The notes beneath the pieces are model-generated. The model saw only the letters and a list, made by a program, of their open reading frames with translations, was not told where the DNA came from and did no database searches. Made by a program: the position numbers and the translations under genes. DNA of 64,000 nt from an uncultured Gammaproteobacteria bacterium (GTDB lineage Bacteria > Patescibacteriota > Microgenomatia > 0-14-0-10-38-17), in contig CAYGEH010000001.1 of NCBI GenBank assembly GCA_964348895.1, positions 110,593 to 174,592 of the forward strand, read 5' to 3'. Position 1 is the first letter of the stretch, and every line of letters starts with the position of its first letter. Shown in pieces: positions 3,699-29,422 of the stretch.

Positions 3699-4499
3699 AT
3701 GGAAATGGAAAATCATATTAATATGGGCGACCAAAACGCTCAACAAGCCAAGCAAGGTCCAGTTAGTCAACCTTCTCAGCTACCAAATAAACCAAAAACA
3801 AACTGTTGGATGATTTCTACTGTTGTTTTGATAGTTCTGCTTCTGTTAATTATGGTGGCGCTTATAATAAACCTTGAAAGAATCACCAACAGCAGGCCAT
3901 CTCCAGAAAGCACACCGAGAGGAAACAACAATGAATCAATAATTTCTACTCCGCAACAAACGATTACCCCAACTCCTGCCTCTAGAGAAAATTTAATTCC
4001 AGCCCCAGAACCAGGATTCAAGCAATATTTAGATGAAAACCTAAGATATGGATTTAGCTACCAAGATTCACTTTCCCTGTCGAAATGTGCCGATATTCCG
4101 TGTGCTTCGATAGATGCAATATCGTTACGAATAAATCCGCTTGAGGCTTTTCATTTAGCAGAACCAGATCCAAAAGCAAGTCTTCTTGCTGGCGATCTAT
4201 ACTGTGATGCAGGGGGACCGATGGAAAACATAGAATGCAAAAATACAAAAGTGGAAGATTTTACAAATTTACTGGGTTTTGGGGGATTTAAAATATATCG
4301 TACAAAAACCGTAACAAGAGGCGATGAAGAAATTCCCGCAGAAGTTTTTCAAGACATTGCTTATGTTTTTCCACTAGAGAAAGTGGCGAATGGTCGGGGA
4401 TTGACCAATTTTGCGGGCATACTTTTTGCTGTAGATACGACGACAAAGTCTAACCTCTCGTCTCTTGAAGAAATAGTTAATTCTTTTTTCAGTTTCTAA
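3699..4499 (+). CDS. membrane-anchored hypothetical protein (N-terminal TM helix, Pro/Thr-rich linker, Cys-containing extracytoplasmic domain)
   Basis: 266-aa ORF. Hydrophobic segment ISTVVLIVLLLLIMVALII is followed by a low-complexity linker and a Cys-rich domain. An extended -10-like TGcTATATT lies ~20 nt upstream. Confidence 0.5.
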   Translation: MEMENHINMGDQNAQQAKQGPVSQPSQLPNKPKTNCWMISTVVLIVLLLLIMVALIINLERITNSRPSPESTPRGNNNESIISTPQQTITPTPASRENLIPAPEPGFKQYLDENLRYGFSYQDSLSLSKCADIPCASIDAISLRINPLEAFHLAEPDPKASLLAGDLYCDAGGPMENIECKNTKVEDFTNLLGFGGFKIYRTKTVTRGDEEIPAEVFQDIAYVFPLEKVANGRGLTNFAGILFAVDTTTKSNLSSLEEIVNSFFSF

Positions 4500-4801
4500 A
4501 CTTTTACGAAACAAAAAGTAAATCGCGCGCGCAAAAAATAGCGGAAGCGTGACGCCCGTATTTGTCTTGCTAGAGTTGCGAGGACGCCCTCCAGACGACT
4601 GAATTAACTTTTGCACAAATTCGGTTATAATTTTTTCGTAAATTTCGACCAAGCGAAGCTTAATGGATTTTGCGGACAGCTTGTTATTTTACTCACCACG
4701 CCACAAAAACAAGTCTAATTACCTAAGGTTTGGGACTTTTATTAGATAATTACAGGGCGAGGAAAAGAAAATAAGGTGCTAAAATCTATTAGCAATAATT
4801 T

Positions 4802-20471: not shown

Positions 20472-20873
20472 ATGGAAAAAAAGTGTGTTTTCTGTCAAAT
20501 TGCCAAAGGTAAAATACCCGCCCAGGTTATTTATGAAAATAAACAACTCCTTGCTTTCTTGGATAACCAACCCGAAGCCTCTGGTCATATTTTAATTATT
20601 CCTAAAGAACACTTTGCTACTCTTTTAGATGTCCCCGCAGATATTCTCACCAACCTTGTTCGAGTTTTACAAAAAATTGCCCAAAACATTGCTAATCAAT
20701 TACATCCCGACGGCTTTAATGTTTACCAAAACAGCGGCTCTTTCGCTGGACAAACCATCAATCATCTTCATTTTCATCTCATCCCTCGCTATCGCCAAGA
20801 TCCCTCAATCGACAAAAAAAATTTTCCTTTAATCGTTAAAACATTAAGAAAAGAAATAATAAGCTATGACTAA
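20472..20873 (+). CDS. HIT family (histidine triad) nucleotide hydrolase
   Basis: CVFC at the N-terminus and the canonical HLHFHLIPR histidine triad. Confidence 0.85.
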   Translation: MEKKCVFCQIAKGKIPAQVIYENKQLLAFLDNQPEASGHILIIPKEHFATLLDVPADILTNLVRVLQKIAQNIANQLHPDGFNVYQNSGSFAGQTINHLHFHLIPRYRQDPSIDKKNFPLIVKTLRKEIISYD

Positions 20874-22995
20874 ACAAGAACTTTCGTTTCTAGAAATTAA
20901 GATCCCCAAAAACAATCTTTACACCACGGAGCAAACAGAGGCTTTATTGGTCAATTTAACTAAATCGAAAAATGGTGGACTATTTTCCTCTCCTCAAACC
21001 GCTCTAAGTTTAAACATTATTTCCCAAGAACAAAGAGTTCACTTCTTTTTCGGTCTTCCCCAAGAAAAAACCAACTTCATTCAAAGTCAAATTTTGGCCC
21101 AATATCCCGACTCGCTAATAACTGTTGGCAAAAACCCTCTTCTCTCTTTACCTGAACTAAGAAAAGCTTGTTTTTGTCAATTAGTTTTGGCTAACGCTTA
21201 TTACTATCCCCTAAAAACCGCCGCTGATTTTACTGACACTAACCCCCTATCTTCAATTTTGGCTACCCTCTCCAAAATTAAACAACCCAAATCTTGGGCT
21301 GTTTATCAGTTAATTATTACTGGCAAAACAACAAGCGCTGCCAAAAAGATTAATAATAAAATTTTGGTTGGGGTTAAAAATGAAGACGGCAACTATCGCT
21401 CTCACCCCGATCAGTCTTTGTTTGAGAAAAAAATTAGCAAAGATTTACTTGTGACAACCATTAATCTTCTTGCTTCTGATAAAACTATTCTTGGCGAGCT
21501 TGCCGGCAGCTTTGGCTCTTTTACAAGCCCCGGTAGCAACAATTTAACCATTAAAAATCCGACCTTTTTAAATAAAAATAAAATCTATCAATCAATTATT
21601 AATCATCAGTCAAGCCAAAAAACCATTCTTAATCTTGCCGAAGCGGCTACCCTTTGGCATTTGCCAAACGAAAAGGTCACTTTGCCCAATATCGCTTGGG
21701 GAAGAACAATCACCACTGAATCTCCTAGTGATCTCCCTGTTGTCCAAAATCTTAGCGAAGAAGAGAAAAAAGATGTTTGTTTTTTTGCTCGAACTGAATA
21801 TAAAAATCAAATGGTTAATTTTGGCATTAAAAAAGCCGATCGCCGACTTCACTTTTATGCTATCGGTAAAACTGGCACCGGCAAATCAACCTTAATCGCC
21901 AATATGGCCATTTCTGATATTAGACGAGGACAGGGGGTTGCCGTAATTGATCCCCACGGAGACCTAATTGAAACTCTTCTAAACTATATTCCTTCAAATA
22001 GAATTAATGATGTTTGCTACTTTAATCCAGCCGATAAGGAATACACTTATCCTTTAAACCCCCTAGAAGTAACCAATAAAGAACAAAAAGAACTAGTTGC
22101 CTCTTCTATTTTAGCTATTTTCTTTAAACTCTATAGCTATTCTTGGGGTCCAAGACTGGAACACATTTTTCGCAACGCCCTTCTTACTCTGGTTGAAGTT
22201 CCCGATGTAACCCTGGTTAATGTCATTGACATTTTAACTAAAGAGGGCTACCGAAATAGCATCATCAAAACCCTAAACAATCCCTCTTTGGTTTCTTTCT
22301 GGCAAAATGAATACGGAAAAATGCCTGATCGGCTTCAACAAGAAGCCATTTCGCCAATTCTTAACAAAGTTGGTCAATTTATTTCCTCTCCTTCAATTAG
22401 AGAAATTATTGGCTGGCCTCGTTCTCGGGTTAATTTAGAAGAAATTATGAACGAAGGAAAAATTTTGTTGGCCGATCTCTCTGCGGGAAAACTTGGCGAA
22501 GATAACTCCGCTCTTTTAGGAGCAATGTTGATCACTCAAATTCAATTAGCGGCTATGAATAGGGTTAATGTCCCTGAAGAATCCCGCCGAGATTTTTATT
22601 TATTTGTTGATGAGTTTCAAAATTTTGCCACCACTTCTTTTATTAAAATTCTTTCCGAAGCGAGAAAGTATCGCCTTGCCTTAACTTTATCTAATCAATA
22701 TATGGCTCAACTTGATGAAAAAATTCAAAGTGCTATTTTTGGCAACATTGGCTCCCTGACTTCGTTTATTGTTGGCAATCAAGACGCTCAAGTTTTGGCC
22801 CGAGAAGTCGCCGACGACTATAATGAAAAAGATTTAATTTCCCTCGACCGTTTTCAAATTTTAACCAAGTTGGCAATTAACGGTCGAACCTCAAAGCCCT
22901 TTCTGGCCTACACTCTTCCTTTGCCTAATTGCATAAACCAAGGCAAAAATAAAGTTATTAACGCTTCTCGTCAACGCTTCGGTAAAAAAAGATAG
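20866..22995 (+). CDS. VirD4/TraD-like type IV secretion DNA-binding domain ATPase (coupling-protein family)
   Basis: Walker A YAIGKTGTGKST, Walker B LFVDEFQNF, ~700 aa. 8-bp overlap with the HIT gene. Confidence 0.6.
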   Translation: MTKQELSFLEIKIPKNNLYTTEQTEALLVNLTKSKNGGLFSSPQTALSLNIISQEQRVHFFFGLPQEKTNFIQSQILAQYPDSLITVGKNPLLSLPELRKACFCQLVLANAYYYPLKTAADFTDTNPLSSILATLSKIKQPKSWAVYQLIITGKTTSAAKKINNKILVGVKNEDGNYRSHPDQSLFEKKISKDLLVTTINLLASDKTILGELAGSFGSFTSPGSNNLTIKNPTFLNKNKIYQSIINHQSSQKTILNLAEAATLWHLPNEKVTLPNIAWGRTITTESPSDLPVVQNLSEEEKKDVCFFARTEYKNQMVNFGIKKADRRLHFYAIGKTGTGKSTLIANMAISDIRRGQGVAVIDPHGDLIETLLNYIPSNRINDVCYFNPADKEYTYPLNPLEVTNKEQKELVASSILAIFFKLYSYSWGPRLEHIFRNALLTLVEVPDVTLVNVIDILTKEGYRNSIIKTLNNPSLVSFWQNEYGKMPDRLQQEAISPILNKVGQFISSPSIREIIGWPRSRVNLEEIMNEGKILLADLSAGKLGEDNSALLGAMLITQIQLAAMNRVNVPEESRRDFYLFVDEFQNFATTSFIKILSEARKYRLALTLSNQYMAQLDEKIQSAIFGNIGSLTSFIVGNQDAQVLAREVADDYNEKDLISLDRFQILTKLAINGRTSKPFLAYTLPLPNCINQGKNKVINASRQRFGKKR

Positions 22996-23048: not shown

Positions 23049-24584
23049 ATGTTATTTCTTAAAAAACAACTTTTTCCAATTAGTTTAAATTTAAACTTAA
23101 AGCTTCGCCCTGGCTGGAAGAAAGCTGGCTTGTTAATCCTATATTTCTTTCCATTAATCATGCTCGCTTTTTTGTTAATCAGACCTAATCTTCCCAAAAT
23201 GAATTGGCAGATGGCCTTTGAAAGATCAGCCAATTACTCTCCTCAAAATTATCAGCAAAACAAGGAGAGCCAGTTGCCTTGGCTCTCAACTTCGGGGCGA
23301 TTTATTGTTGACGAAGAAGGAAGACCTGTTATTTTGCGAGGAGTTAATGTTGCCAGCATTTCTTGGGGATATAAGGATTGGTTTCCAAAAGCCGTTGAGG
23401 TCGCAGCCAAAGACTGGGGGGTTAACGTCATTCGAGCCAGGGTTTATCAGGATAAATATTTCGAAAACCCAGAAGAGTTCTTTCAAATAATGGAAGAAAC
23501 TATTATTGGTCCAGCCAGAAAGCTTAATCTTTACATCATTCTTAATCCTTGGATTGGTGAAAATGAACCTCTGCCTAATGAACAAACCTTTATCTTCTGG
23601 CAAGAAATTGCTCGTCGCTATCAAAACGACCCGGCCATCATTTATGATGTTCTGGCTGAACCATATGATGTTAGTCGCGTCCAGGTTTGGGAGGCTAATA
23701 AAAAATTAATTGAAGCTATTCGTCAAGTTCATCCTAAAAGTTTGATTATGGTCACTGGGGTTGGTTGGGGAAGAGAAATTAACTCTTATCTTAATAACCC
23801 CCTACCTTATAAAAATATTGTTTATCGAACTAACCCCTACAATAAGACTGGTGAATTTGAAGCCATTTTTGGTCGAATTGCTCGCTTTTATCCAGTCTTT
23901 ATTGGCGAATTTGGAGCTGATGGTTTCCCTCCGATGACCCGAGAGTCGGTTGAAGAATTACTGTTGTTGGCCAACAAGCTTTCTTTGGGCTGGACAGCCT
24001 GGAACTTTCACTCTGTGGGTTGTCCCTGCTTGTTAACAGATCGTCAGTCTTATCAGCCTTCGGCTTATGGTCAGATTGTTAAAAACGCCCTGGGAGTGCC
24101 CTTAGCAGTCAATCAAAACAACCTAGAAATAAACTATAGTGCCGACAAAAAATTAATTATTTACTCCGACCACCTAGAAAATAATTTTCGCGATCTTTCC
24201 TGGGATGCTACAATCGATTTAGTCAATCAAGAACAAGCTTTTTCTGGTCAAAAATCAATTAAAACAGAAATTAATAAGGGTTGGGGGGCGCTTTATCTTT
24301 CTTCCTATCTTCCAATTGAAACGGAAAACCTTTCTTGGTTTAAATTTAAAATTAAAACTAATCAATTAAATCTTTATCGGACTAATTTAATAACAAACAA
24401 CAACAGCAGTTCTAATGAAGTAGCTCTTCTTCCTTGGTCTAAACATATTTCTGAAAATTGGTATCAAGTTGCAATTCCTCTTACCAACCTTATTAATAAA
24501 AACGAAAAAATTATCGGCCTTAACATAAAAGATTCTTCTGGTTCTCCTTCGCTTTTTTGGGTTGATGATATTTATCTAGAATAA
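23049..24584 (+). CDS. glycoside hydrolase family 5 protein with N-terminal membrane anchor and C-terminal accessory domain
   Basis: N-terminal TM helix, then a GH5-like (beta/alpha)8 region: RGVNV...NVIRARV, YDVLAEPYD (NEP-type acid/base) and FIGEFGADG (nucleophile Glu). Confidence 0.7.
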   Translation: MLFLKKQLFPISLNLNLKLRPGWKKAGLLILYFFPLIMLAFLLIRPNLPKMNWQMAFERSANYSPQNYQQNKESQLPWLSTSGRFIVDEEGRPVILRGVNVASISWGYKDWFPKAVEVAAKDWGVNVIRARVYQDKYFENPEEFFQIMEETIIGPARKLNLYIILNPWIGENEPLPNEQTFIFWQEIARRYQNDPAIIYDVLAEPYDVSRVQVWEANKKLIEAIRQVHPKSLIMVTGVGWGREINSYLNNPLPYKNIVYRTNPYNKTGEFEAIFGRIARFYPVFIGEFGADGFPPMTRESVEELLLLANKLSLGWTAWNFHSVGCPCLLTDRQSYQPSAYGQIVKNALGVPLAVNQNNLEINYSADKKLIIYSDHLENNFRDLSWDATIDLVNQEQAFSGQKSIKTEINKGWGALYLSSYLPIETENLSWFKFKIKTNQLNLYRTNLITNNNSSSNEVALLPWSKHISENWYQVAIPLTNLINKNEKIIGLNIKDSSGSPSLFWVDDIYLE

Positions 24585-24782
24585 GTCTTGTTCAGTCTAT
24601 TAAACTGTTATCCCATAGTCTTGATAGTTTGTGCCTTTTTTGCTACAATAGACTTAGATTGAGAGACGCTCCTATTTTGCTTAGGATGACTTTTCTCTCA
24701 ATCGCACCTTGACAGGACCGAAAGAAAAAAATTCTTTTTAATATTCTTTCGTCCCGAAAAGGGGTGAAATTTTTTTCACTCT

Positions 24783-24800
24783 TTTTGGGGCCGAAAGAAG
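24783..24800. repeat. left inverted repeat (ttttggggccgaaagaag) of the GC-rich cassette
   Basis: Reverse complement recurs at 25529..25545 with 15/16 identity over the core TTTTGGG(G)CCGAAAGA. CCGAAAG-type motifs also occur at ~24716 and ~24754. Confidence 0.5.
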
Positions 24801-24824
24801 AAAAAAGAAGAAAAAGGAGAGACA

Positions 24825-25511
24825 ATGAGAAAGAGAGAGAAAGAGAACAGCGGGTTCGATCCGGCTCCATTGCCGTGGTACTGGAAAAGGGTGTTGTTGG
24901 TGTTCCTCCTCGTTCTTGCGGCCGCCGCAACGGTACTAGGACTTGTTCTGGTACGCCCGTGGACACAAGGAGGGAGAAACAAAGCAGGGCTCATTGCCAC
25001 CACGACAACTGTCCATCCCGAGGCGGTCGTCGCGCAAACGACTCCAACGGTTGTTGTCTTGATGAAGACAGCGACTCCCGAGGCGGCCGTCGCCGTGCCG
25101 CAGACAGTAGTCTGCAGTGTACAGGTTCGACTCGACGAGGAGGACCCGTACTGGAGTAACGCTTCGGCGCTACTCCTTGTTGAAGGCTGGTGTGCTCTTG
25201 TAGAACGAGACCAGGCTTGGCAACAGGTCAGGGACGAAGAAGCTCTTCGAAAAACCTGGAAAGAAGGGGCCACAGAAGATTATCTTCTTTTGTGCAACCC
25301 TGGACCAGGGTCGAGGCTGTTCAACTTACAGGACTCCTTTGGAGGCCGGCCACCAGACTGGTGGAATGACCAGGCAAAGGCTGTTTTGCTCTTCCGCCTC
25401 CCTGGTGTGACTACCAGCGATGATCTAGTCATCGCCGTGTTGTACGAACACGACGATGACCAACTCGAAGAAGGATGGGAATTCCCCATTCTTCTCCCTC
25501 ACCAGAACTAG
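24825..25511 (+). CDS. hypothetical membrane-anchored Ala/Val/Thr-rich protein encoded in a GC-rich (~58% GC) segment
   Basis: 228-aa ORF with N-terminal TM helix WKRVLLVFLLVLAAAATVLGLVLV and very high GC3. An AGGAGA RBS sits 6 nt upstream. All other ORFs overlapping it are GC-driven artefacts. Confidence 0.5.
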   Translation: MRKREKENSGFDPAPLPWYWKRVLLVFLLVLAAAATVLGLVLVRPWTQGGRNKAGLIATTTTVHPEAVVAQTTPTVVVLMKTATPEAAVAVPQTVVCSVQVRLDEEDPYWSNASALLLVEGWCALVERDQAWQQVRDEEALRKTWKEGATEDYLLLCNPGPGSRLFNLQDSFGGRPPDWWNDQAKAVLLFRLPGVTTSDDLVIAVLYEHDDDQLEEGWEFPILLPHQN

Positions 25512-25528
25512 CACGCGTCAGCATCGCA

Positions 25529-25545
25529 TCTTTCGGCCCAAAAGG
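25529..25545. repeat. right inverted repeat (tctttcggcccaaaagg) of the GC-rich cassette
   Basis: Pairs with 24783..24800. Confidence 0.5.
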
Positions 25546-25665
25546 AAGGGGGATTAAGCGGGAAGCAATGAGCTTTCTGACAAAAGATTCATCACTTATG
25601 TGATGTTCTTTTTCAGAAGCTTATGCTTCTCGCTCCCCCGTCCGCCCTTAATTTTTAAACAAAAA

Positions 25666-26991
25666 ATGAAAAAGTTTATTGTGGTTATCTTAATTAGTTT
25701 TGTTCTGATTATTTCTTTTTTGCTGGTTAATTTTTATGGCTTTCTTTCTGGGTTCCTGTTCTTGGTGACCATTTTCCTGCTTTGTCAGGGCTCCTTTGCC
25801 ACTTACTCTATACTTTCCTCTTGGTTAAATCCAGAAAGTTTAAAAAAAATTTCTCCGCCAAAAGATTTCTCCCAAAATCGGCTATTCTTCTCCTTGATTA
25901 TTCCGGTTAGAAACGAGGAAAAAGTCATTGCCCAAACCTTGGCGGCAATGAAAAAAATTAACTACCCTCGCGATAAATATGAAATTATAATTACCGCTCG
26001 CGACGATGACACTAAAACTGTGGGAAAAATTTTGGAATCACTAAGCCACCTTCCTCCCACCTTTAATTTATTAGTTTGGGAAAACTTTCCCAATTCTAAG
26101 CCTCAAGGCTTAAACGCCGCCCTAAAATATACTCAAGGAGAAATTGTTGGCATCTTTGATGCTGAAGATGAACCTCATCCAGACATTTTAAACGCCGTTA
26201 ACACCACTTTTATAAACAAGAAGGTCGACATTGTTCAATCGGGAGTTCAGTTGGTTAATGTTGACTCTTATTGGTATTCTCCTCATAATTGTCTAGAATA
26301 CTATTTTTGGTTTAAATCGGTCTTGCCCTTTTTCTCCTCTTGGGGCGCTAACCCACTTGGGGGGAATACTGTTTTTTTTAAAAAAGCTATTGTTGGGGCT
26401 GCTGCTGGTTGGGATGAAGACTGTTTAACAGAGGACGCTGAGATTGGTGTTCGATTGTCGTCTTTGGGTAAAAAAACTGCCGTTATTTATGATGAAGAAA
26501 TAGCCACTAAAGAAGAAACTCCTCCTAGCTTGGGCGGCTTCATTCGCCAGCGAACTCGCTGGCATCAGGGGTTTTTTCAGGTTCTTTTAAAGGGAAACTG
26601 GAAAGATTTGAAAAATAATCGCCAAAAGGGAATTATTCTTTATCAAATGACTTATCCTTTTATGCAAATTTTTAATTCTTGCTGGCTTTTGATCACCCCC
26701 TTCTTGGCTTTTTTTACTAAAATTCCCCTAGGAATAGCTCTTTTTTCTTATCTCCCTGCTTATTTTTTCTTGATTCAATTGGGGGTTTCCTTAATCGGTC
26801 TTTATGAATTAAACAAAAACTATCAACTTAAGTTTTCACCTCTAGTTTATTTTAAGTTTTTGGTTTTCTTTTTTCCATATCAATTCGTTATTTCTTTGGC
26901 CACCCTAAGAGCAATCAAGAGGCAGTTGGCGGGATTAAATTTTTGGGAAAAAACTGAACACATTAACGCTCACCGAAAAGCTTTTTCTTAA
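25666..26991 (+). CDS. processive family-2 glycosyltransferase (cellulose/chitin-synthase-like, QxxRW class), integral membrane
   Basis: SLIIPVRNEE...DDD, DAED (DXD) and QRTRWHQG (QxxRW), with N- and C-terminal TM helices. MKKFIVV at 25666 is taken as the start; the ORF opens at 25600. Confidence 0.7.
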   Translation: MKKFIVVILISFVLIISFLLVNFYGFLSGFLFLVTIFLLCQGSFATYSILSSWLNPESLKKISPPKDFSQNRLFFSLIIPVRNEEKVIAQTLAAMKKINYPRDKYEIIITARDDDTKTVGKILESLSHLPPTFNLLVWENFPNSKPQGLNAALKYTQGEIVGIFDAEDEPHPDILNAVNTTFINKKVDIVQSGVQLVNVDSYWYSPHNCLEYYFWFKSVLPFFSSWGANPLGGNTVFFKKAIVGAAAGWDEDCLTEDAEIGVRLSSLGKKTAVIYDEEIATKEETPPSLGGFIRQRTRWHQGFFQVLLKGNWKDLKNNRQKGIILYQMTYPFMQIFNSCWLLITPFLAFFTKIPLGIALFSYLPAYFFLIQLGVSLIGLYELNKNYQLKFSPLVYFKFLVFFFPYQFVISLATLRAIKRQLAGLNFWEKTEHINAHRKAFS

Positions 26992-26998
26992 AAAGAAT

Positions 26999-29422
26999 AT
27001 GAAACTTTTCACTTTAGTTAAAAATTTACTTAAAAAGAAAAATTTTCTCCCCGTGCTTCTGGGGTTAGTTTCTGTCTTGTCTCGCTTAATTAATCTTTTT
27101 GGCTATCCAGAGTTTTTGGGCGACGAAGGAATTTATGCCTCTCAAGGCTGGTGGTTAATTAACTTTGGTCAAATTTCCCCCTATACTTACTGGTATGATC
27201 ATTCGCCTTTCGGTTGGCTTCAAATCGGTCTTTGGCAAAAGTTAACTGGAGGGCCGTTTACTTTTGGCTTTTCTGTTAATTCGGGCAGGATTTTTATGGC
27301 AATACTCGCTGGGGTTTCAGTTTTCTTGTTTTTTAAAATCGTTTTAAAAATTACTAAAAGTAAGCCAATCTCTCTTTTCTCTAGTCTAGTTTTTATTTTT
27401 TCCCCCTTAGCGGTTGCTTATCAAAGATTGCTTCTTTTAGACAATTTAGCTGTTTTTTATTTTTTAATCAGCCTCTATTTTATTTTGATCGCAAAGAAAA
27501 GACTGCTCTTTTTTTTACTTTCTGGCCTGGCCGCTGGACTAGCCTTTTTATCAAAAGAAACTAGCCTTTTGCTTGTTCCTGGTCTTTTTATTTTAGTTTT
27601 TAAAAAATCGCTTGGCCCAACTCAACCCTTTTTGATTTTAATCTGGCTTGTCTCTTTAGGTTTTACTGCTCTTTTTTTTCCGCTTTTAGCTTTTCTAAAA
27701 TTAGAGCTTTTGCCTGCATCTTGGCTGCCTGGGCAAAGACAGCATGTTTCTCTTATAGAGGGAATCTTGTTCCAAGCTGGCCGAACGGGAGGCAATCTTT
27801 TCAGTCCAGAAAGCGACATTAGGCGGGCAATTGTTGGCTGGCTAGAAATTGACAGAGTTTTACCTGCTCTGGGTTTATGGTCAATGCTTATTTTAGTAAT
27901 CAACTTAAAAAATAGTCTTTCTATTTCCTTTTTAATTATGAACCTATTCTTCGCCTGGTATCTTTTGCGAGGCGGAGTAGTTTTGGGATTTTATCTTATT
28001 CCCCAAATTGCTCTTTGGTGTTTAAGCTTGGCCTTGGCAATCAAGTTGATTAACAATAAACTCCAATACCGACTTTCAGCAAAAAAAATCACATTTGTTA
28101 TTGGAATAGCCGTTTTGCTTTTAATTGCCCAAAGCCCACAAGTTTATTTAATCAATAAGAATCAAGCTCATCTTAATAGTCTTAACTTTCTAAGAAATAA
28201 TATTAATCCTGAAGCCGTTCTGGTTACTGACCCACTCTTTTACCTTGATCTAAAAATTAACTCTAAATATCCTACCTTTAGTCGAGTTGAGTGGTTCTCT
28301 AAGGTAGAAATGGACCCACAAATAAGAGAAGGAAAGCTTGAAAATCGATGGCAAAAGATAGATTACTTGTTAACCACGCCAGGAATGATGGGGGAAATAG
28401 AAAAAAACGACTATCAGTTTATTAGCCAAGCAATAAGCCGAGGCTTAATCTTAAGGAGTTTTGGTGAAAACGACTTTGAGACCAACATTCTTTATCAGAT
28501 TCCGGAATCAGAAAAACTTTCTGGCTTTGGAAGAATAGTTTATGAACAAAATCAAAATAAAAATTATTTAGAAAAAATAAAGAAATTAATTATTTCTCTT
28601 GGAACAGATTTTGGTGGACAATTGATTTTGAACCCTAATCAGATTAGCCCTGCCAGTAAAATAACCACTTTTGTTGACCAAGAAGGAGGGTTAGTTAATC
28701 GTTTTCGAGAGTCACCCAACATTGCCCAAAGTCAAATTAAAGACAGAAATGAGGCTTTTCGTTTGGCTAAGGTCCGAGGAATTATGTTAAAAAGAAACGG
28801 TATTGATGTTAATTTGGCGCCTGTTTTAGATATTGGCCATTTACAAAACAGTTATATTGTCAGAGAAAGAAGATCCTTTTCTAGTAACCCTGAGCAAGTC
28901 ATTAGCTTTGGCGAGGCAATGATTAATGGCTATCGCCAGGTCGGAATTAAAACAATTATTAAGCATTTTCCCGGCGGCCTAGGCCGCACTAGCCTTGATC
29001 CTCATTATCAGCTTCCTCAAATTAATCTCAGCCAAAGCGACCTAGAAGAAGACATTGTTCCTTTTAAAAAGCTAATTGGTTTGGCTGATGGAGTTATGGT
29101 CACCCACCTTGACTATCCTCAAATCGACCCCAATTTGCCTTCCAGTTTGTCCCCAATTTTTATAAACGCCCTGCTAAGGCAAAAACTAAACTATCAGGGA
29201 CCGATAATTATTGATGACTTAAATATGAAAGCTATTAGTCAAGAATATTCTCAAGCTCAGGCGATTGCCTTGGGGTTAAGAGCTGGGGCCGATCTCTTTA
29301 TTATTACCCAACCAGAAAAAAATCTTCTTGAAGACCTGATGATATTAATCGAGTCTGGGGAAATTAGTCCTGGTCTAATTGATCAAGCCCTAGAAAGAAG
29401 CAAGGAGCTGTTAAACCATTAA
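26999..29422 (+). CDS. fusion protein: N-terminal GT39/ArnT-like polytopic membrane domain plus C-terminal glycoside hydrolase family 3 (NagZ-like) domain
   Basis: ~480 aa of TM helices with ArnT-like N-terminal features. The C-terminus has KHFPGGLGRTSLDPHYQ (GH3 KHFPGHG..D.H motif) and IIIDDLNMKAIS (GH3 nucleophile-Asp region). Confidence 0.6.
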   Translation: MKLFTLVKNLLKKKNFLPVLLGLVSVLSRLINLFGYPEFLGDEGIYASQGWWLINFGQISPYTYWYDHSPFGWLQIGLWQKLTGGPFTFGFSVNSGRIFMAILAGVSVFLFFKIVLKITKSKPISLFSSLVFIFSPLAVAYQRLLLLDNLAVFYFLISLYFILIAKKRLLFFLLSGLAAGLAFLSKETSLLLVPGLFILVFKKSLGPTQPFLILIWLVSLGFTALFFPLLAFLKLELLPASWLPGQRQHVSLIEGILFQAGRTGGNLFSPESDIRRAIVGWLEIDRVLPALGLWSMLILVINLKNSLSISFLIMNLFFAWYLLRGGVVLGFYLIPQIALWCLSLALAIKLINNKLQYRLSAKKITFVIGIAVLLLIAQSPQVYLINKNQAHLNSLNFLRNNINPEAVLVTDPLFYLDLKINSKYPTFSRVEWFSKVEMDPQIREGKLENRWQKIDYLLTTPGMMGEIEKNDYQFISQAISRGLILRSFGENDFETNILYQIPESEKLSGFGRIVYEQNQNKNYLEKIKKLIISLGTDFGGQLILNPNQISPASKITTFVDQEGGLVNRFRESPNIAQSQIKDRNEAFRLAKVRGIMLKRNGIDVNLAPVLDIGHLQNSYIVRERRSFSSNPEQVISFGEAMINGYRQVGIKTIIKHFPGGLGRTSLDPHYQLPQINLSQSDLEEDIVPFKKLIGLADGVMVTHLDYPQIDPNLPSSLSPIFINALLRQKLNYQGPIIIDDLNMKAISQEYSQAQAIALGLRAGADLFIITQPEKNLLEDLMILIESGEISPGLIDQALERSKELLNH

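Follow-up and report, generated by a model that had tools for sequence, protein, structure and literature searches.

The 64,000-nucleotide stretch of contig CAYGEH010000001.1 analyzed here (hereafter the window) holds an open reading frame (ORF) of 228 amino acids, at 24825..25511 on the forward strand, that lies in a block (24783-25545) of unusually high guanine plus cytosine (GC) content. We refer to this ORF as gene X. On balance, the X block is probably an ancient, vertically inherited gene in a surface-glycan operon of Patescibacteria (Shapirobacteria-like), built as a structurally insulated, GC-rich, self-closing mRNA module. Judging from their sequences, the inverted repeats that flank the gene most likely pair as RNA and close the message into a loop.

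Gene X is the sole GC peak of its kind in the window. An original prediction made on this DNA had described an abrupt GC-rich block in a background of ~34% GC; the block is real, with 54.7% GC (55.5% for ORF X), and the background is higher than stated, at 37.7% for the window. We scanned all 64 kb in 687-bp segments, the length of X. The remaining segments averaged 37.5 ± 3.0% GC with a maximum of 44.4%, so that composition is not uniform once computed and X stands ~6 standard deviations out. The step is abrupt at the left edge (34% at 24800 to 52% at 24825) and at the right edge (54% at 25525 to 40% at 25550), and it tracks the boundaries of ORF X to within about 25 nt, as boundaries are tracked in all lineages.

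Both codon choice and protein composition contribute to the excess. GC at the first, second, and third codon positions of X is 65%, 43%, and 58%, and the high third-position value (GC3) that had been predicted for this ORF is evident against the 31 other ORFs of at least 200 amino acids in the window (31.4 ± 3.4%, maximum 38%). Recoding the X protein with host codon usage gives 46.6% GC, so roughly half of the excess lies in amino acid composition and half in synonymous codon choice. The protein is enriched in Ala, Val, Thr, Pro, and Trp and depleted in Ile, Lys, and Phe; its codons include several that are rare in the host, such as CTC (9 of 30 Leu codons, host 4%) and GTC (8 of 25 Val codons, host 9%), and GCG and CCG are enriched. 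We rejected codon optimization for high expression as a cause, as no other ORF of that size in the window exceeds 38% GC3. An overlapping or antisense gene was also rejected: the longest alternative-frame ORF switches frame between orthologs, among which no conserved alternative reading frame was found.

The GC excess is a property of the X gene family in all its lineages, and it is maintained. In every related locus examined, X was 8–20 GC points above its flanks (X versus flank: window, 55.5% versus 37.4%; L004, 54.5% versus 42.0%; L011, 56.0% versus 38.9%; L010, 54.0% versus 40.5%; L012, 54.7% versus 43.1%; L006, 52.9% versus 41.5%; L016, 50.8% versus 37.8%; L008, 47.5% versus 39.4%; L028, 51.6% versus 31.7%), and GC3 in these loci was 44–67% in X compared with 30–46% in adjacent genes. 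We reached deeper lineages through GT2 glycosyltransferase homologs that were only 47–48% identical. L034 carries an X homolog (hhalign probability 96%) with 57.6% GC against a flank of 40.6% and a GC3 of 66%. In L032, a 291-amino-acid transmembrane (TM) protein at 3926-4801 occupies the position of X with 51.8% GC against 34.5%; no homology to X was detected by hhalign (probability 2%), and its motif PRDEWGNDSLK resembles the X motif RPxDWWNDQAK. A 383-amino-acid analog in the X position of L035 has 61% GC against 48%. In a Roizmanbacteria locus with a different gene order, the upstream gene is compositionally ordinary (GC3 26%), and one lineage among the distant GT2 homologs lacks any X-type gene. 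Overall, the GC content of X stays near 50–58% irrespective of that of its hosts (32–48%).

The position of X is constant across its relatives. Gene order was GH5 glycoside hydrolase, X, processive family 2 glycosyltransferase (GT2), and PMT/GH3 in all ~20 related Patescibacteria loci examined, with X between the GH5 hydrolase and the processive GT2 in every locus with sufficient flank; the same GH5-X-GT2 order holds for the distant homolog P0035 (E = 4e-10). Homologs of X form about 25 clusters among 5.8 billion proteins. A HMMER search run exhaustively over 1.84 billion protein representatives returned 17 matches, and every match whose contig context could be examined sits in this type of GH5-GT2 locus; the search returned no homolog outside the clade and no donor lineage. 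Contigs that name an organism are assigned to Shapirobacteria or other Patescibacteria, with the exception of L010, a metagenome-assembled genome labeled Gammaproteobacteria. X was present at the GH5-GT2 junction in all loci with a GT2 at least 65% identical, plus deeper relatives. No close relative with an empty GH5-GT2 site was found, and only the distant lineages L033 and L036 were without X.

An intergenic design on both sides of X is kept across all loci (Table 1). The predicted X transcript would comprise its own promoter, a 5' hairpin (P1), a conserved anchor, elements A, B, and C, an exposed Shine-Dalgarno (SD) sequence, the GC-rich ORF, element D, and a hairpin of ~100 nt. A motif of ~11 nt or its complement is present in three copies in the leader (A, B, and C) and a fourth (D) just past the stop codon. 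The near-perfect inverted repeats of the original prediction correspond to 24784-24798 and 25529-25543, which are complementary at 14 of 15 positions, and the recurring motif it had noticed is found at 24716-24725 on the forward and 24745-24754 on the reverse strand. Allowing one mismatch, GGCCGAAAGA occurs 12 times in the window compared with 4.9 ± 2.1 expected, and the X locus accounts for 4 of these, both perfect copies among them. The motif is over-represented solely owing to this locus and is not dispersed.

Table 1. Predicted features of the X module and the genes that adjoin it (positions in the window).
Feature	Position	Strand	Description	Basis
GH5 glycoside hydrolase gene	23049..24584	+	Directly upstream of module	Pfam PF00150, E 5e-29; synteny
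Promoter, sigma-70-like	24621..24649	+	TTGATA-17-TACAAT, extended -10 TG	10/12 consensus matches plus TG
P1	24659..24703	+	Two-tier hairpin a few nt from predicted 5' end; outer ATTGAGAGA/TCTCTCAAT, inner TCCTA/TAGGA	Fold
Anchor	24704..24714	+	GCACCTTGACA (consensus GCWCYTTRAYA), between P1 and A	Conservation
Element A	24715..24726	+	GGACCGAAAGAA; 5' arm of closing helix with D, alternatively pairs B	Fold, covariation
Element B	24744..24755	+	TTCTTTCGTCCC; complementary to A and C, conserved C.U mismatch	Fold
B:C hairpin interior	24756..24786	+	GAAAAGGGGTGAAA / TTTCACTCTTTTT, including small hairpin GTGAAA..TTTCAC	Fold
Element C	24787..24799	+	GGGGCCGAAAGAA; left repeat of the original prediction	Fold
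Shine-Dalgarno sequence	24814..24819	+	AAGGAG in unpaired purine-rich tract, 5 nt before ATG	Sequence, fold
Gene X	24825..25511	+	TM anchor, linker, and beta-sandwich	Homologs, pN < pS, structure model
Element D	25529..25539	+	TCTTTCGGCCC; 17 nt past stop, right repeat of the original prediction, 3' arm of closing helix	Pairing
Trailer hairpin	25544..25643	+	~100 nt, directly before GT2 start	Fold
Processive GT2 gene	25666..26991	+	Directly downstream	Pfam PF13641/PF13632/PF00535; synteny

Individual leader and trailer elements are conserved to differing degrees. Transcription is predicted to start at ~24656, and the promoter pattern TTGAnn...TGnTAnAAT is kept in aligned orthologous leaders. 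P1, a hairpin that had already been recognized upstream of the block, occurs in 17 of 17 leaders with differing sequences, and the anchor holds the only invariant columns across these leaders. The CUUUG of the anchor can pair with a CAAGG just 3' of element D, which may account for conservation of the anchor, though not for its invariant unpaired positions. Element C is present in exactly one copy per orthologous locus, and AAAGGAG is kept in X orthologs. Downstream of X, TTTCGGCCC is invariant across 13 trailers, with element D 5–18 nt past the X stop codon across loci. The base of the trailer hairpin is SD-like on the 5' side (GGAAGGGGG) and reads CUCCCCC on the 3' side. A 157-nt region containing this hairpin folds at -64 kcal/mol (z = -7.7), and a hairpin of 80–100 nt and -37 to -60 kcal/mol sits at the equivalent position in 14 of 14 loci; group 2 has its own sequence there. 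The AT hairpin and T-run previously described at 25590-25613 exist, but they are only the tip of this larger structure.

Some further observations concern these intergenic regions. Whichever purine the anchor consensus carries, one frame reads TGA or TAA; for an upstream ORF ending there, no start codon shared by the orthologous leaders was found. A second promoter at the anchor (TTGACA) was rejected, as it lacks a -10 box. In the window genome only, the leader carries a terminator-like hairpin followed by a T7 run (24747-24776). The T-run is absent in orthologs, and we rejected a leader terminator or attenuator (24747-24769 plus the T-run) on that lack of conservation. The GT2 gene (ATG at 25666) has no recognizable SD and starts 22 nt after the trailer hairpin, whose SD-like 5' arm reads GGAAGGGGG in the window and AAGGAGGGGGG in relatives and is sequestered by CUCCCCC. 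The arrangement may be a ribosome-loading or coupling device.

Folding of the full transcript supports pairing between leader and trailer. We folded whole transcripts of seven orthologs by minimum free energy (MFE), and in six of the seven the fold paired D with A and B with C. In an alternative closed fold, C pairs with D instead of B, and A pairs with B; forcing this arrangement costs just 7–15 kcal/mol of 350–620. Both folds enclose the ORF in a loop of ~0.8 kb and leave the SD unpaired. A:D duplexes have energies of -18 to -33 kcal/mol, extended C:D duplexes span 22–30 bp with G.U pairs at -29 to -42 kcal/mol, and both complementarities are present in all loci. The closing helix has a fixed start after the anchor and occurs as five sequence types, with complementarity kept in all of them: leader GGACCGAAAGA with trailer TCTTTCGGCCC in the window type, GCCGAAAAAC with GTTTTTCGGC in the L008 type, GACGAGAGGTT with AACCTCTCGTC in L028, AGACGAGAGAGTAT with ATACTCTCTCGTCT in L032, and GGAGAAACCAGAC with GTCTGGTTTCTCC in L034. 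In the last three, D comes after the trailer hairpin rather than before it, so complementarity is kept while the layout is not. Tested against dinucleotide-shuffled trailers, the closing helix had a combined p of 1.5e-6.

Compensatory changes were also found within the leader. We scored covariation of P1 and B:C on a plain sequence alignment. Pairing is possible in 85% of cells, and 13 of the 32 pairs have changed on both sides; the score of 0.334 compares with 0.192 in shuffles (0 of 500 reached the observed value) and at most 0.239 with slid partners. Several G.U pairs recur in every sequence, a pattern that suggests pairing of plus-strand RNA and not a DNA palindrome. Because MAFFT alignments place the groups out of register, trailer and P1 were folded locus by locus, and a covariance model of P1, anchor, and A was built from well-aligned groups only. 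This model gave one strong match per X locus, with 24646-24729 as its only match in the window, and it recovered the leaders of L032 and L023, neither of which is in the model, at the correct place.

The ORF itself also appears more structured than its composition predicts. We shuffled synonymous codons within each gene, holding protein, codon usage, and GC constant. Across 14 loci, X ORFs had MFE z scores of -2.3 to -9.4 (mean -4.4), compared with a mean of -0.9 (+0.5 to -3.1) for 14 segments of neighboring genes (Mann-Whitney p = 7e-6); the Roizmanbacteria analog, which is not GC-rich, scored -1.9. The consensus fold of the X-domain codon alignment had a z score of -8.2 relative to codon-column shuffles, and 13 controls ranged from +0.55 to -5.2. 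We regard conserved structure inside the X ORF as suggestive only.

Two readings place more of the function in the RNA. The first, a tentative possibility, is that X belongs to an undescribed class of ~1-kb "closed" RNAs in Patescibacteria, in which an RNA chassis would be the primary conserved entity and would host a rapidly replaceable surface-protein ORF. The chassis might then consist of the promoter-proximal hairpin, the anchor, the closing helix, and a GC-rich paired body at its own set-point of ~50–58% GC, and it could conceivably serve the glycan-synthase operon as a functional element, e.g., a sensor, scaffold, or processing module. The second, which we consider unlikely, is a dual-function large RNA: the ~1-kb closed transcript would itself be functional (regulatory, scaffolding, or sensing) and also encode, or have captured, a protein. 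A GC-rich island in an AT-rich genome is a classic structured-RNA signature (PMC8723152), and structure above shuffles in all orthologs and the alignment-level signal are as such an RNA would show. Moreover, GC excess, P1, anchor, and closing helix (a perfect 14 bp) all persist in L032 despite its unrecognizable protein. However, purifying selection on X is clear, its indels are in frame, and it has a conserved fold-like domain; the gene thus does not look free of coding constraint as a non-coding structured RNA would be, and covariation within the ORF is sparse and mostly follows amino acid conservation. Rfam offers no match: in an Rfam 15 scan of the window (including riboswitches, ROOL, GOLLD, and OLE), only two tRNAs passed, and at permissive thresholds nothing in 24500-25750 came near its cut-off (best 35.8 bits versus 64).

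Codon usage in X could instead reflect translation kinetics, in that rare GC-ending codons might be selected to slow or throttle translation of X, with the flanking helices as ordinary regulatory or terminator elements. Slower translation could aid co-translational insertion into the membrane, the forming of disulfides, or assembly with the synthase, or it could keep X scarce. The host-rare codons noted above fit this account, as do a membrane anchor, a secreted domain, and conserved cysteines, and ORF-wide structure correlates with low translation efficiency in Escherichia coli (PMC5318159). Nevertheless, we consider it quite improbable, as rare codons do not predict extra folding relative to same-codon shuffles, a covarying helix enclosing the ORF is not predicted, and a strong promoter with an exposed, strong SD argues against a low-output design.

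The substitution patterns of X bear on whether its composition is a relic. Synonymous divergence (pS) between the window and each ortholog is 0.69–0.79 for X and 0.67–0.77 for GH5, GT2, and PMT, i.e., saturated. X is the fastest-evolving protein of the locus, with a nonsynonymous divergence (pN) of 0.31–0.46 compared with 0.08–0.34 in its neighbors, and pN below pS indicates purifying selection; nucleotide identity profiles likewise show X to be less conserved than its flanks. We polarized substitutions in three close pairs. Changes in X from A or T to G or C (W>S) numbered 19, 26, and 20, compared with 22, 25, and 21 in the opposite direction (S>W), and third positions showed 37 W>S and 35 S>W in total, where the substitution regime of the neighbors predicts ~50 of 72 to be S>W (p = 1.2e-4). 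Saturated synonymous sites with balanced W>S and S>W changes indicate that the composition of X is at equilibrium and maintained, rather than that of a decaying relic.

For this reason, we consider it very unlikely that X is an unameliorated compositional relic of an old GC-rich donor, or that it marks a recombination hot spot with GC-biased gene conversion. The abrupt GC step and atypical codon usage would be expected of either, and recombination does occur at the locus, where identity profiles are mosaic. Between L004 and L011, pS is 0.32 in X compared with 0.66–0.76 in adjacent genes, and a tract of high identity spans roughly -100 to +670 counted from the X start, taking in the 3' part of the leader, the gene, and the trailer. 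The pattern points to a recent exchange of alleles, by homologous recombination, that took in the whole module; exchange of this kind among related lineages is the only trace of "mobility" of X. Biased conversion is nevertheless unlikely, because the equally recombining C-terminal region of GH5 is AT-rich and the GC step follows ORF boundaries. X remains GC-rich in every lineage past synonymous saturation, in hosts of 32–48% GC, no donor or outside homolog turned up among 1.84 billion representatives, and neither mechanism accounts for structure beyond composition. The same evidence, together with conserved synteny, leaves the original prediction of recent horizontal acquisition from a high-GC donor unsupported. 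Its alternative of a selfish or mobilized cassette fared no better: the repeat is confined to the X locus in the window, there is no transposase or recombinase gene within ±10 kb of X, no direct repeat outside the inverted repeats (as a target-site duplication would leave) was found at the locus, and close relatives without X, or empty sites, were not found.

The inverted repeats might act as DNA instead, making X invertible (phase-variable) through recombination sites or flanking it with operators bound by a protein that regulates the glycan operon, and a 14/15 inverted repeat around a surface-protein gene in a polysaccharide locus does recall known invertons. The four copies of the motif share an unchanging core, a hint of sequence-specific recognition. 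Still, this is a highly improbable explanation: in more than 20 contigs representing 10 or more lineages, X always runs in the direction of GH5 and GT2, no recombinase (and hence no invertase) gene is present within ±10 kb, G.U pairs are conserved in the helices, which lengthen through wobble pairing when read as RNA, and deeper lineages move D beyond the trailer hairpin, keeping complementarity but not sequence. An assembly chimera or contamination, suggested only by the abrupt change in composition, has virtually no chance of being correct, since 12 contigs of up to 691 kb, independently assembled and drawn from ENA, Logan, and NCBI, carry an identical X protein, gene order, and junctions, and orthologous junctions are found in many other genomes.

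Several considerations weigh against a self-closing module maintained by selection on RNA. The whole case is computational, and its mechanistic statements are drawn from sequence. Single leader-trailer duplexes only modestly beat shuffles (p = 0.002–0.24), and as close groups show no variation in the cores of A, C, and D, the covariation rests on a few deep lineages. Control segments were also mildly negative under synonymous shuffling (to -3.1), two controls of the alignment test reached -4.7 and -5.2, and helices within the ORF fall mostly at protein-fixed nucleotides with few clear compensatory pairs. MFE folds of ~1-kb RNAs are unreliable, and because the orthologs share ancestry, the tests fall short of full independence. 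Leader and trailer combine structure with just 36–44% GC, so structure alone does not explain a rise in GC exactly over the ORF. One possibility is that coding constraint blocks designed helices within the ORF and that dense pairing and fewer AU-rich single-stranded cleavage sites are reached by raising GC instead. Finally, ORF-wide structure in E. coli accompanies low translation efficiency (PMC5318159), so that the module may either raise or lower X output.

If X is a self-closing message as we propose, selection acting on RNA would keep its GC content high. A closed, base-paired, AU-poor message with a hairpin near its 5' end, an exposed, strong SD, and a long hairpin at its 3' end may be shielded from 5'-end-dependent, endonucleolytic, and 3' exonucleolytic decay. 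Stability and translation of X would then be set independently of GH5 and of GT2-PMT/GH3, which could let X and the synthase genes be expressed at different levels. X may be separated from GT2 by RNase III-type processing, for which either the trailer hairpin or the extended C:D duplex is a candidate site.

The product of X is supported as a membrane-anchored extracytoplasmic protein, consistent with the surface or secreted protein of the original prediction. The structure model places a TM helix at residues 18–42, followed by a disordered linker and a beta-sandwich at residues 98–223. Across the family, members share the N-terminal TM helix, a variable linker rich in Pro, Thr, Ala, Val, and Glu, and a ~125-amino-acid domain with in-frame indels and invariant Trp, Cys, and Asn residues (APEGVWSNAS..EGWC..LLLCNPGPGSR..DWWNDQAK..VLYEHD..GW); some members have a second C-terminal domain. 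No match to X was found in Pfam or NCBIfam. The linker of the window protein contains an 18-nt direct repeat (25016-25033 and 25076-25093, 17 of 18 identical, 60 nt apart) that encodes a doubled unit of ~20 amino acids (..PEAVVAQTTPTVVV.. and ..PEAAVAVPQTVV..), and linker length and sequence differ in each ortholog. In one locus, L031 (P0027, 139-852 and downstream), the allele has a frame-shifted or truncated C-terminus and is without element D and the trailer hairpin; this may be a decaying copy or an assembly error.

Variation at the locus is not confined to X. The 3' end of GH5 (window ~24150-24584, the last ~400 nt, encoding a C-terminal region resembling a carbohydrate-binding module [CBM]) is hypervariable among close relatives, with 41–57% identity in genome pairs that are 90–99% (L010/L017) or 70–85% (L004/L011) identical in the flanks. 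This tract adjoins X and has 29–35% GC, i.e., it is AT-rich, unlike X, and it is an even stronger hot spot of divergence and recombination. Divergence of X, the hypervariable GH5 C-terminus, and exchange between L004 and L011 fit a surface-exposed protein under diversifying pressure. Beyond GH5 and GT2, a PMT_2/GH3 protein follows GT2, mostly as a fusion, which in the window (26999-29422) is an 807-amino-acid protein with a PMT_2-type membrane glycosyltransferase and a GH3 glycoside hydrolase domain. PMT_2 and GH3 are separate genes in L028 and L034, and GH8 replaces GH3 in L036. In most loci, a TrwB/type-IV-coupling-protein-like ATPase (DUF8128) lies just upstream of GH5 (709 amino acids, 20866-22995 in the window), an odd companion for a glycan-synthesis cluster.

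Local GC excess is routinely read as horizontal transfer, and X is a clean counter-example, keeping an excess of 8–20 points at equilibrium, past synonymous saturation, across hosts of 32–48% GC. In X, the excess is accompanied by a covarying helix around the entire message. We know of no other bacterial gene described in which a whole ORF departs from its genome by ~18 GC points and does so across synonymous-saturated lineages, and we found no Rfam family or paper describing an X-type module. If selection on RNA is responsible, mRNA architecture would reshape codon usage, and even amino acid usage, across an entire bacterial gene, and methods for island detection would need a caveat. The locus would also offer a natural test bed relating ORF-wide structure and 5'-3' closure to mRNA stability and cistron stoichiometry; to our knowledge, almost nothing is known of RNA decay in bacteria of the Candidate Phyla Radiation. 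X itself, an orphan surface protein that evolves fast and is always found with a glycan synthase widespread in Patescibacteria, is also a candidate for roles in cell-surface or host-attachment biology.

Processing stems that bracket rRNAs and the RNase III hairpins between phage T7 early genes offer one comparison, in that GC-rich structured RNA in an AT-rich genome is enclosed by paired flanks, and a long intercistronic hairpin could be cut to leave stabilizing stem ends. Unlike these, the RNA enclosed at X is translated, and its core helix of 9–14 bp is shorter than canonical RNase III substrates, a length reached only by the extended C:D duplex or the trailer hairpin.

At the protein level, the closest parallel is with CcsB and BcsB, membrane-anchored extracytoplasmic partners of cellulose-type GT2 synthases, the former encoded in the ccsZ (GH5)-ccsA (GT2)-ccsB cluster of Clostridia (PMC7710045). 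Like these proteins, X is encoded beside a GH5 hydrolase and a processive GT2 and combines a TM anchor with an extracellular beta-sandwich or jelly-roll-like domain. No sequence or fold homology of X to CcsB (CBM11-like) or BcsB was found, and the likeness is one of analogy only; the place of the gene and the topology of its product make an accessory role beside the GT2 synthase, akin to theirs, the most likely one for X.

At the RNA level, pairing between the two untranslated regions (UTRs) of one mRNA has precedents, and complementary UTR segments and compensatory change, as expected of such interactions, are both found at X. In the hbs mRNA of Bacillus subtilis, a 14-bp interaction of the 5' and 3' UTRs modulates cleavage by RNase Y and hence mRNA stability (PMC5737220). 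Long-range UTR pairing, predicted in the case of X, is common to hbs and X. The hbs ORF is short and has no compositional anomaly, whereas X-type ORFs are 0.6–1.1 kb and 8–20 GC points above the genome, and the X module, unlike hbs, has its motif four times (allowing two alternative closed folds) and a hairpin of ~100 nt. In the icaR mRNA of Staphylococcus aureus, the 3' UTR pairs with the SD region and creates an RNase III substrate (PMC3868564). Shared with the predicted X message are UTR-UTR pairing within one mRNA, an exopolysaccharide (GT2-dependent) pathway, and a possible RNase III substrate. However, the icaR 3' UTR masks the SD, whereas at X neither predicted fold pairs the SD, and the leader element that does pair is 25–100 nt upstream of it.

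Work on ORF-centric mRNA structure in operons (PMC5318159) and on differential decay within operons (PMC5927463) provides the broader setting. As in those systems, X is a cistron with its own, ORF-bounded level of structure, and intercistronic structured elements could lead to unequal expression; the magnitude differs, as the whole X ORF is ~18 GC points off and is kept so across lineages. The X module is thus a variant of known 5'/3'-UTR and operon-structure mechanisms that is unusual in its scale and compositional footprint.

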